A stretch of 64,000 bases of DNA, taken from the NCBI RefSeq assembly GCF_056712565.1, contig NZ_CM160072.1; one strand, 5' to 3'. The notes under the pieces were generated by a model. It ran no database searches, was not told the DNA's origin, and saw only the letters and a program-made list of their open reading frames with translations. Position 1 is the stretch's first letter; every line of letters starts with the position of its first letter. The position numbers and the translations under genes are program-made. Below, piece after piece: positions 46,129-48,779 of the stretch.

Positions 46129-47049
46129 ATGTTTCCAAAATGCAAATTTTCCCGCGAGTTTCTGCATCCTCGCTACTGGCTCACGTGGTTTGGGCTTGGT
46201 GTACTCTGGCTTTGGGTACAGCTTCCTTATCCTGTTCTCTGCTTTCTCGGCACGCGTATCGGCACAATGGCGCGACCATTCCTGAAACGTCGTGAATCTA
46301 TCGCCCGTAAAAACCTGGAACTTTGTTTCCCGCAGCATTCTGCGAAAGAGCGCGAGAAGATGATTGCCGAAAACTTTCGTTCACTCGGCATGGCGCTGGT
46401 AGAAACCGGCATGGCGTGGTTCTGGCCCGACAGTCGCGTACGTAAATGGTTTGATGTGGAAGGGCTGGATAACCTTAAACGCGCACAAATGCAAAATCGC
46501 GGCGTAATGGTTGTCGGCGTCCATTTTATGTCGCTGGAACTGGGCGGTCGGGTGATGGGACTTTGCCAACCAATGATGGCCACCTATCGCCCGCATAATA
46601 ATCAGCTGATGGAATGGGTGCAGACCCGTGGTCGCATGCGCTCTAACAAAGCGATGATCGGCAGAAATAATCTGCGCGGTATTGTCAGTGCACTGAAGAA
46701 AGGTGAAGCGGTATGGTTTGCTCCCGATCAGGATTATGGTCGTAAAGGCAGCTCCTTCGCGCCGTTCTTTGCGGTGGAAAATGTCGCCACAACCAATGGC
46801 ACCTATGTCCTCTCTCGTCTCTCTGGCGCAGCCATGTTGACCGTAACGATGGTAAGAAAAGCGGATTACAGCGGATATCGTTTGTACATCACCCCAGAGA
46901 TGGAAGGCTACCCGACAGATGAAAATCAAGCCGCTGCCTATATGAACAAGATTATCGAGAAAGAGATCATGCGCGCACCGGAGCAGTACCTCTGGATCCA
47001 CCGTCGCTTTAAAACGCGCCCGGTGGGTGAATCGTCGTTATACATTTAA
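46129..47049 (+). CDS. lpxP: Lipid A palmitoleoyltransferase (cold-induced)
   Basis: ORF matches recalled LpxP from internal ATG (306 aa). Confidence 0.9.
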   Translation: MFPKCKFSREFLHPRYWLTWFGLGVLWLWVQLPYPVLCFLGTRIGTMARPFLKRRESIARKNLELCFPQHSAKEREKMIAENFRSLGMALVETGMAWFWPDSRVRKWFDVEGLDNLKRAQMQNRGVMVVGVHFMSLELGGRVMGLCQPMMATYRPHNNQLMEWVQTRGRMRSNKAMIGRNNLRGIVSALKKGEAVWFAPDQDYGRKGSSFAPFFAVENVATTNGTYVLSRLSGAAMLTVTMVRKADYSGYRLYITPEMEGYPTDENQAAAYMNKIIEKEIMRAPEQYLWIHRRFKTRPVGESSLYI

Positions 47050-47404
47050 CAAACGGCTCTCACTCTTTCCCTCCTCAAATCAGCCATAATAACCTCATGG
47101 TTTTTATGGCTTTTTTCTTAAGGTTTTTTCCTTCGCTGAATATCTAATTATTACCGTCAGAAATTAAACTGTCGCCGATATGAGACACCTGTAAGTTACT
47201 AAAAGTAAATAAGAAAATGCCTCTTGTCTCGTTTCAGTTTTAGGCGTACATTAGCGCCGTCTCGAGCAGTTTAGCTCAGAATTCTGGGATGATGCCCACG
47301 GTAAAATACAGGACGTTTAAGGTCGTTTTGCCCGGTGTCAACTCACTGTATCAGGTGTAATAAAGTCATTCAGGCGTAACAGTAGTTACGCGGAGAGATG
47401 TAAA

Positions 47405-47476
47405 GTGAAATATTTCTTTATGGGCATTTCTTTTATGGTCATCGTTTGGGCCGGTACTTTTGCCCTGATGATCTAA
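47405..47476 (+). CDS. ypdK: Small membrane protein YpdK (23 aa, GTG start)
   Basis: Own translation (M)KYFFMGISFMVIVWAGTFALMI with GGAG Shine-Dalgarno; matches recalled K-12 YpdK. Confidence 0.5.
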   Translation: MKYFFMGISFMVIVWAGTFALMI

Positions 47477-47540
47477 AAGCAAACTGTGCAATGAAAAACA
47501 GGAGCCATCAGGCTCCTGTTTGCATTTCTGGCGATGGTGT

Positions 47541-48779
47541 TTATTCCGCGTTTTCGTGAATATGTTTGCTGCTGGCAGGTAGTAAACCGTCGGCACGGAA
47601 CATCGCTTTAATCCCACGAATCGCCTGACGAATACGGTCGCGGTTTTCAATCAGTGCAAAGCGCACATGCGTATCGCCGTAGTCGCCAAAGCCAATCCCT
47701 GGAGAGACACAGACCTTCGCTTCGTTAAGCAATTTCTTGGCAAATTCCAGCGAGCCCATGGCAGCATACGGTTCCGGGATTTTCGCCCAGACATACATCG
47801 AAGCCTTCGGCATTTCGACCATCCAGCCCGCTTCATGCAGCCCTTTCACCAGCACATCACGGCGGCGTTTGTACTGTTCGGCAATATCGCGCACGCACTG
47901 TTGATCGCCCTCCAGCGCCGCAATAGCCGCCACCTGCAACGGCGTAAAGGTGCCGTAATCGTGATAGCTTTTAATACGTGCCAACGCGCTGACCAGCGTT
48001 TTGTTACCGACCATAAAGCCGATACGCCAGCCCGCCATGTTGTAGCTTTTCGACAGCGTAAAGAACTCGACCGCCACGTCGCGTGCACCTGGCACCTGCA
48101 TGATTGACGGCGCTTTCCAGCCATCGTAGACGATGTCCGCATAGGCCAGGTCGTGGACCACCAGCACATCGTAGCGTTTCGCCAGCGCCACAACCTTTTC
48201 GAAGAACTCCAGCTCCACGCATTGCGCGGTTGGGTTCGACGGGAAGCCGAGGATCATCATCTTCGGTTTCGGATAACTTTCGCGAATGGCGCGTTCCAGT
48301 TCGTTGAAGAAATCGACACCTTCCACCAGCGGCACTGAGCGTACCTGCGCCCCGGCAATCACCGCGCCGTAAATATGAATGGGGTAACTTGGATTCGGCA
48401 CCAGCACTGTGTCACCGTGATCCAGTGTCGCCAGCATCAGATGCGCCAGGCCCTCTTTCGAACCAATAGTGACGATGGCTTCTGATTCCGGGTCGATTTC
48501 AACGTCGTAGCGATCCTGATACCAGCGGGAAATGGCGCGACGTAACCGCGGAATGCCGCGTGAAGTGGAGTAACCATGCGTGTCCGGGCGCTGGGCCACC
48601 GTACATAATTTTTCGACGATATGCGGCGGAGTCGCACCGTCCGGGTTACCCATACTGAAATCGATAATATCTTCGCCGCGCCGACGCGCAGCCATTTTCA
48701 GTTCAGCGGTAATGTTAAAAACGTAGGGCGGGAGACGATCAATACGCGTAAAGCGACGTTCAGGGCGAGTGTCAGCCAT
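47541..48779 (-). CDS. alaC: Glutamate-pyruvate aminotransferase AlaC
   Basis: 412-aa PLP-dependent aminotransferase ORF; K-12 synteny. Confidence 0.9.

Follow-up and report, generated by a model that had tools for sequence, protein, structure and literature searches.

The stretch of DNA analysed here, hereafter the window, comprises 64,000 nucleotides of contig NZ_CM160072.1 (assembly GCF_056712565.1). At 47405..47476 on its + strand lies a very short open reading frame that starts with GTG (47405-47407), runs for 23 codons and ends with TAA (47474-47476) in the raw sequence. It encodes the peptide MKYFFMGISFMVIVWAGTFALMI. A Shine-Dalgarno (SD) sequence, GGAG, can be read at 47392..47395 (+) with a 9-nt spacer to the GTG. 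A sequence-only reading of the window had described this ORF with its GTG start and GGAG, and both the ORF list and the raw sequence contain it at this place; it appears once the ORF listing of the window is rerun with a length cutoff of 20 aa. The same reading had remarked that the supplied ORF track misses genes of fewer than 60 aa. This is true but trivial, as the default cutoff is 60 aa, and the window contains seven intact RefSeq CDSs below that length, which are ypdK and six prophage genes. The prophage is P22/lambda-like, occupies approximately positions 1-27000 and ends beside torI and dsdC. It encodes a portal protein, a P22-type capsid, terminase, a Nin region, a Q antiterminator, holin, CII/Cro, ERF and anti-RecBCD functions, and its six intact annotated CDSs of 50-58 aa are likewise hidden by the 60-aa cutoff.

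The identity of the ORF is firm because its sequence and its position are both identical to an existing annotation. Escherichia coli K-12 MG1655 annotates ypdK (b4680, YP_002791250.1, ‘putative membrane protein YpdK’) at 2496921-2496992 of NC_000913.3, where a window coordinate plus 2449516 gives the K-12 coordinate. The statement that this is a known K-12 small protein was thus borne out: the K-12 gene has the same position between lpxP and alaC and the same 72 nt, and the intergenic regions of K-12 and the window align without gaps. Over a 901-nt query that includes the ORF, the window is 100% identical to E. coli ATCC 11775 (NZ_CP033092.2), and the ypdK CDS in the RefSeq record of that strain maps exactly onto 47405-47476; relative to K-12 YpdK (b4680, NF033437.1) we are dealing with the same gene in another strain, without any difference. 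The peptide matches the curated NCBIfam equivalog NF033437.1 ‘YpdK’ over its full length (residues 1-23 on profile positions 1-23 of 23) with 57.5 bits against a cutoff of 30 (E = 9.4e-16). Pfam contains no family for the peptide and PDB no matching chain. The ypdK region, searched with the 901-nt query, was matched in 5422 of 5426 complete E. coli genomes with a median of 1 place per genome, and ypdK is annotated beneath the match in all E. coli rows among the matches listed. The segment of SD and ORF reaches 99% identity or more in 4769 E. coli records, and in the remainder the identity is 95-99%. Four of the 5426 complete genomes lack the region, one copy is located on a plasmid and at least one genome has the region at three places. 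The ORF at 47405-47476 is the already-annotated ypdK, and its detection in the window is correct, ordinary and already known. Chromosomally tagged YpdK was reportedly detected by immunoblot by Hemm and co-workers in 2008. In a UV tiling-array study (PMC3009722), which itself detects a ypdK transcript, the gene is listed after Hemm et al. (2008) among 18 newly found small ORFs, and its product is given as a putative single transmembrane peptide.

Upstream of ypdK and on the same strand lies lpxP, with its annotated start at 46129 and its stop at 47049. Downstream lies alaC (47541-48779), which is on the opposite strand and convergent with ypdK. The sequence-only reading had placed the gene between these two, which holds for the window and for K-12; over a wider range of species, only the second half of that statement stands, with lpxP being a lineage-specific neighbour and alaC the conserved partner. 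We collected 80 alaC loci (L003-L082), one genome per species, and searched them with tblastn for ypdK. A homolog lies just downstream of alaC, in convergent orientation, in 76 of the 80 sampled species of Enterobacterales. The genera include Escherichia, Citrobacter, Salmonella, Enterobacter, Kluyvera, Phytobacter, Kosakonia and Cedecea as well as Buttiauxella, Shimwellia, Mangrovibacter, Pantoea, Erwinia, Mixta and Serratia; tblastn did not find ypdK in L004 (where the contig ends), L068, L078, L080 and L081. Of the sampled genera, only Escherichia, Citrobacter, Salmonella and Enterobacter have lpxP upstream of ypdK, and the nearest upstream ORFs form about 28 unrelated gene clusters. Judged by gene order in these loci, the neighbour that ypdK has kept through evolution is alaC and not lpxP. 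On its upstream side ypdK borders a hot spot for rearrangement and insertion, while the convergent alaC-ypdK pair and the hairpin common to both stay fixed. Such a variable upstream side fits the published case of an O26 strain that carries an Stx prophage in its ‘mlaA-ypdK intergenic region’.

All 76 ypdK ORFs start with GTG and have a length of 23 or 24 codons. In nearly all of these loci a GGAG-type SD (GGAG, AGGAG/GGGAG) precedes the GTG by 6-10 nt, and its GGAG is invariant in an alignment of 43 leaders. The 76 loci comprise 69 different DNA sequences, which encode 40 different proteins. Column entropy over the 76 ORFs is 0.58/0.19/1.13 for codon positions 1/2/3, and pooled pN/pS is about 0.28 at a pS that has already reached 0.61. 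The ypdK of Salmonella differs from that of the window by four substitutions, all of them synonymous, and no frameshift or premature stop was found in any of the 76 loci. Residues K/R2, Y3, M6, G7, S9, W15, G17, T18 and F19 are invariant or nearly so. The codon-position pattern and the pN/pS ratio therefore point to selection on the protein and not on RNA or DNA, and on this comparative evidence ypdK is a real coding gene under protein-level purifying selection across Enterobacterales.

It could be argued that the ORF is untranslated, that its conservation belongs to an RNA element or to the 3' region of alaC, and that a historical artefact explains the annotation. With 23 codons the ORF is indeed very short, and the literature that we searched contained no direct proteomic or ribosome-profiling evidence for it. 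Against this stand the codon periodicity of the variation (position 3 far above position 1, and position 1 above position 2) and the 40 protein variants, which are all hydrophobic, differ by conservative replacements and are encoded without a single frameshift or premature stop. In addition, the start codon and SD are invariant, a curated NCBI equivalog model exists and a terminator hairpin separates the ypdK ORF from alaC. The codon-level evidence essentially excludes a non-coding ypdK. The start codon itself also appears to be under selection. Going from GTG to ATG takes a single transition and synonymous sites are near saturation, yet GTG is present in 76 of 76 loci. This suggests that selection favours a weak start or the G as such.

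The spacer between the convergent genes contains the hairpin AAACAGGAGCC-ATCA-GGCTCCTGTTT (47496..47521, not assigned to either strand), which forms an 11-bp stem in the transcript fold. It is flanked by an A-run and, on its other side, by a T-run, and the T-run is the better one when read on the alaC strand. A simple terminator scan made no call for it on the + strand because the T-run is interrupted there. Of the 76 loci, 75 have a hairpin between ypdK and alaC, in 72 different sequence versions, and the structure is therefore kept while the sequence changes. From this pattern, we regard the hairpin as a common, structurally conserved bidirectional intrinsic terminator of ypdK and alaC. The one Rfam match that overlaps the gene, Plastid-psbJ-2 at 47427-47521 (+), spans the 3' half of the ypdK ORF and the terminator. 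At 23.5 bits against a gathering threshold of 65.6 (E = 0.094) we judged it to be a chance match driven by the hairpin.

A candidate sigma-70 promoter of ypdK is located at 47224..47252 (+), with the -35 element TTGTCT at 47224-47229, a 17-nt spacer and the -10 element TACATT at 47247-47252, directly followed by the GC-rich discriminator AGCGCC. This predicts a transcription start at about 47259 (K-12 ~2496775), 146 nt before the GTG. The motif CTTGTn-N17-TACATT-AGCGCC is found in 62 loci regardless of the upstream gene, at a fairly constant 140-165 nt from the GTG. A simple promoter scan did not call it, because 8 of 12 positions match and the scan needs 9. The supplement of the UV tiling-array study (PMC3009722) lists a + strand transcript at 2494795-2494997 that overlaps ypdK (2494943-2495014, both in older coordinates). 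Its start lies 148 nt upstream of the GTG (window ~47257) and is within 2 nt of the prediction, at an array resolution of ~7 nt. According to the same study (PMC3009722), the transcript increased by log2 +1.06 after UV. The ncRNA candidate R8/I238 of the tiling array shows the same fold change of +1.06. It could not be tied to the ypdK locus because its length differs and its coordinates are not given. Since the promoter motif and the leader behind it persist over ~28 unrelated upstream clusters, ypdK is predicted to form an independent transcription unit of ~260 nt with a conserved sigma-70-type promoter of its own.

Conservation extends beyond the promoter. Alignment of 59 distinct promoter regions delimits a conserved region at 47130..47223 (+), with an A-rich tract at 47190-47219 and a partial palindrome, TGTCGCCGATATGAGACAC, at 47170-47188. 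In other genera the palindrome reads TGTCGCC-N7-CGACAC, of which E. coli has a degenerate version. The conserved block reaches ~125 nt further upstream in core Enterobacteriaceae, although the upstream genes differ. The A-rich tract and the palindrome are candidates for an UP element and a regulator binding site, respectively, and the combination of the A-rich tract with a GC-rich discriminator resembles stringently controlled promoters. The palindrome was considered as a CRP site and rejected, because in core Enterobacteriaceae the spacing of its half-sites deviates by one. In Serratia grimesii, a CRP-like 16-mer, TGTGATCAAAAACACA, is located just upstream of the ypdK -35 element (L079:6237-6252, - strand of the locus). 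It is the sole such match, its distance is non-canonical and it replaces the A-rich tract and distal palindrome of Enterobacteriaceae. A second promoter at a leader sequence that reads TATAAT/TATACT is unlikely, as E. coli has CTGTAT at that place and the adjacent bases covary as RNA.

Between the predicted start site and the GTG lies a 5' leader of ~146 nt (47259..47404, +) with conserved secondary structure. We aligned 43 leaders with MAFFT, and the alignment was not fitted to any structure. Helix H1 (47260-47280, +) covaries, and its register shifts between clades in MAFFT alignments. The long-range helix H2 (47286-47295 with 47335-47344, +) is 94% paired, and hairpin H4 (47374-47391, +), which abuts the SD, is 84.5% paired. 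RNAalifold on the 43 leaders recovered H2 and H4, and 8 of the 12 pairs showed compensatory changes. For a five-helix model, 82.1% of cells in the MAFFT leader alignment are paired compared with 75.8% in shuffles. Double changes occupy 94 cells, compared with 37.9 +/- 4.6 in shuffles, none of 500 of which was as high, and with 15-37 when the pairing partners were slid. The E. coli transcript (47259-47525) has a predicted folding energy of -91.7 kcal/mol (z = -5.1).

At the 3' end of the leader, the predicted fold pairs a conserved GATGA that follows the SD with a TCAT(T) that is conserved further upstream. This places the SD within a helix or at its border in the minimum free energy (MFE) fold of 73 of 76 loci, a number that reflects thermodynamic evidence only. 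A possible outer helix enclosing the SD (47365-47371 with 47393-47399, +) likewise has thermodynamic support only. In E. coli the ATG of GATGA is followed directly by TAA, which creates an ATG-TAA ‘start-stop’ at 47398-47403 (+) between the SD and the GTG, 2 nt from the GGAG. Other genera keep the ATG with AAA or AGT after it.

Several other features of the leader were considered and rejected. A helix that joins the SD to codons 3-6 is 79% paired without double changes and is explained by conservation of the coding sequence and SD. Anti-SD pairing of a conserved CTCTC with GGAGAG did not covary with the variants GGAGCG or GGAGTG. An upstream ORF at 47289-47360 (23 aa) lacks an SD, and its reading frame is not conserved. 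A tRNA remnant, suggested by TTAGCTCAG together with the stable-RNA-like promoter, was not found by ARAGORN. Rfam 15 gave no match at E <= 1 for the leader in the window or in six other genera, and a description of the ypdK leader was not found in the searchable literature, which covers a minor part of the relevant papers. The length of the leader ranges from 61 to 183 nt, with part of it deleted in several lineages. In the species representative ‘Escherichia coli strain SCPM-O-B-8794’ (L003:5360-5493, -) it is 33 nt shorter than in the window, and the distance from the -10 element to the GTG is 126 instead of 159. Several other genera also have shortened ypdK leaders, and that of L057 is only ~61 nt long.

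Tentatively, and with some doubt on our side, we propose that the ypdK leader, in which at least three helices covary, is a conserved and so far undescribed RNA element, which may gate microprotein synthesis with growth rate, temperature or a trans-acting factor as the signal, or may form part of a dual-function sRNA. In the latter case the transcript would be a microprotein mRNA whose 5' portion regulates by base pairing or protein binding, which is compatible with our main reading of ypdK. The transcript would be suited to this in being short (~260 nt) and stand-alone with its own promoter and terminator, in having leader helices that covary and in keeping single-stranded stretches, for example AGAATTCTGAG and CTCTCTATAMTCAG, that are conserved and not needed for coding. 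In its short independent transcript, which combines a conserved structured RNA segment with a small ORF, ypdK resembles SgrS/SgrT and AzuCR/AzuC. It differs from them in that the ORF is at the 3' end, just before the terminator, and no base-pairing targets or chaperone binding are known; we found no evidence of targets or of Hfq or ProQ binding. Moreover, the leader is equally well explained as a purely cis-acting element for translation or stability, and part of it is deleted in several lineages. A dual function therefore seems rather unlikely to us.

The combination of a structured leader and a tiny hydrophobic ORF also raises the question whether YpdK is a type I toxin-like membrane peptide, whose structured 5' UTR blocks translation until stress or RNA processing allows it and which then perturbs the membrane. 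In size and hydrophobicity YpdK, with 23 aa and a single charged residue, resembles IbsC, TisB, DinQ and ShoB. The ~146-nt leader, whose 3' end encloses the SD in most of the MFE folds, recalls the tisB, dinQ and zorO mRNAs; this long structured leader and a modest UV induction, seen in one tiling-array study, are points of likeness to TisB, DinQ, ZorO, ShoB and IbsC, and the weak start codon fits as well. Type I toxins are typically patchy, multicopy and lineage-restricted. In contrast, ypdK is single-copy, syntenic across the order and under purifying selection, and its place beside alaC in 76 of 80 sampled species is neither a patchy nor a multicopy distribution. A LexA box was not found in 47100-47480, where the best site matched 6 of 8 core positions and 10 of 20 overall, which does not place ypdK in the SOS (LexA) regulon. 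A consensus scan of the opposite strand found no promoter-like site overlapping the transcript and Rfam gave no antitoxin RNA match at the locus, although both searches have limited power against an antitoxin RNA; with these scans an antisense partner was not detected. Finally, no report of YpdK toxicity was found in the searchable literature. Altogether, we consider it very improbable that ypdK encodes a toxin of this type.

The reading that we prefer is that of a membrane microprotein. The single hydrophobic helix in the earlier description agrees with the hydropathy of the predicted peptide, which is strongly hydrophobic (GRAVY 1.73) and has K2 as its only charge. Exactly one charged residue, K/R2, is present in all 40 variants. 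By the positive-inside rule, a single N-terminal positive charge gives an N-in/C-out orientation. The hydropathy of YpdK is consistent with a single transmembrane helix, and the lone K2 suggests that this helix is probably oriented N-in/C-out. Two conserved blocks, K-Y-x-x-M-G-x-S and W-x-G-T-F-x-L-M, flank a variable hydrophobic core and would be positioned at the two membrane interfaces. A single conserved helical face was not supported (moment test, permutation p = 0.32). The conserved residues are spread off one helical face and therefore do not support a simple one-sided packing interface. We are about 90% confident that ypdK is a genuine annotated gene for a 23-residue, single-helix inner-membrane microprotein, expressed as a stand-alone unit with its own promoter, structured leader, GUG start and terminator.

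What YpdK does in the membrane is a separate matter. The searchable literature yielded neither a function nor a partner or phenotype for it. Other single-pass microproteins in E. coli modulate larger membrane proteins, with the pairs AcrZ-AcrB, MgtS-MgtA/PitA, CydX-CydAB, KdpF-KdpABC, PmrR-LpxT and MgrB-PhoQ as examples. By analogy, YpdK may bind and modulate a larger inner-membrane protein, as AcrZ, MgtS, CydX, KdpF and PmrR do, and we see roughly even odds for such a role. The weak GUG start and the structured leader would keep its synthesis low or conditional. The invariance of the small and polar residues G7, S9, G17 and T18 together with the aromatic residues Y3, W15 and F19 across the order argues for specific contacts rather than bulk hydrophobicity. 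From general knowledge, YpdK is like the microproteins mentioned above in having <50 aa and a single hydrophobic helix with conserved polar or small residues, and like acrZ, mgtS and mgrB the gene stands alone with its own promoter. It differs from them in lacking sequence similarity and in having two terminal conserved blocks instead of one helical face. Unlike cydX and kdpF, ypdK is located outside any operon of a membrane-protein partner. Co-transcription with genes of a partner complex was not found: ypdK has its own promoter and terminator, its upstream genes vary and its constant neighbour is convergent. The product of that neighbour, alaC, is a cytoplasmic aminotransferase and provides no clue to a membrane partner.

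As ypdK is a long-annotated gene of E. coli, the finding of this ORF in itself changes nothing. What is new is limited to the conservation of ypdK across enteric bacteria and its structured RNA leader. The gene provides a worked example of how comparative genomics alone can validate a gene of 23 codons: from Escherichia to Serratia and Pantoea it has retained its length, its GUG start and its SD, with codon-level selection on the protein. As by-products, the analysis offers experimenters a predicted start site, a covariation-supported leader, a candidate regulator palindrome, two invariant blocks in the peptide and the linkage to alaC, which together may serve as a modest lead for work on this microprotein.
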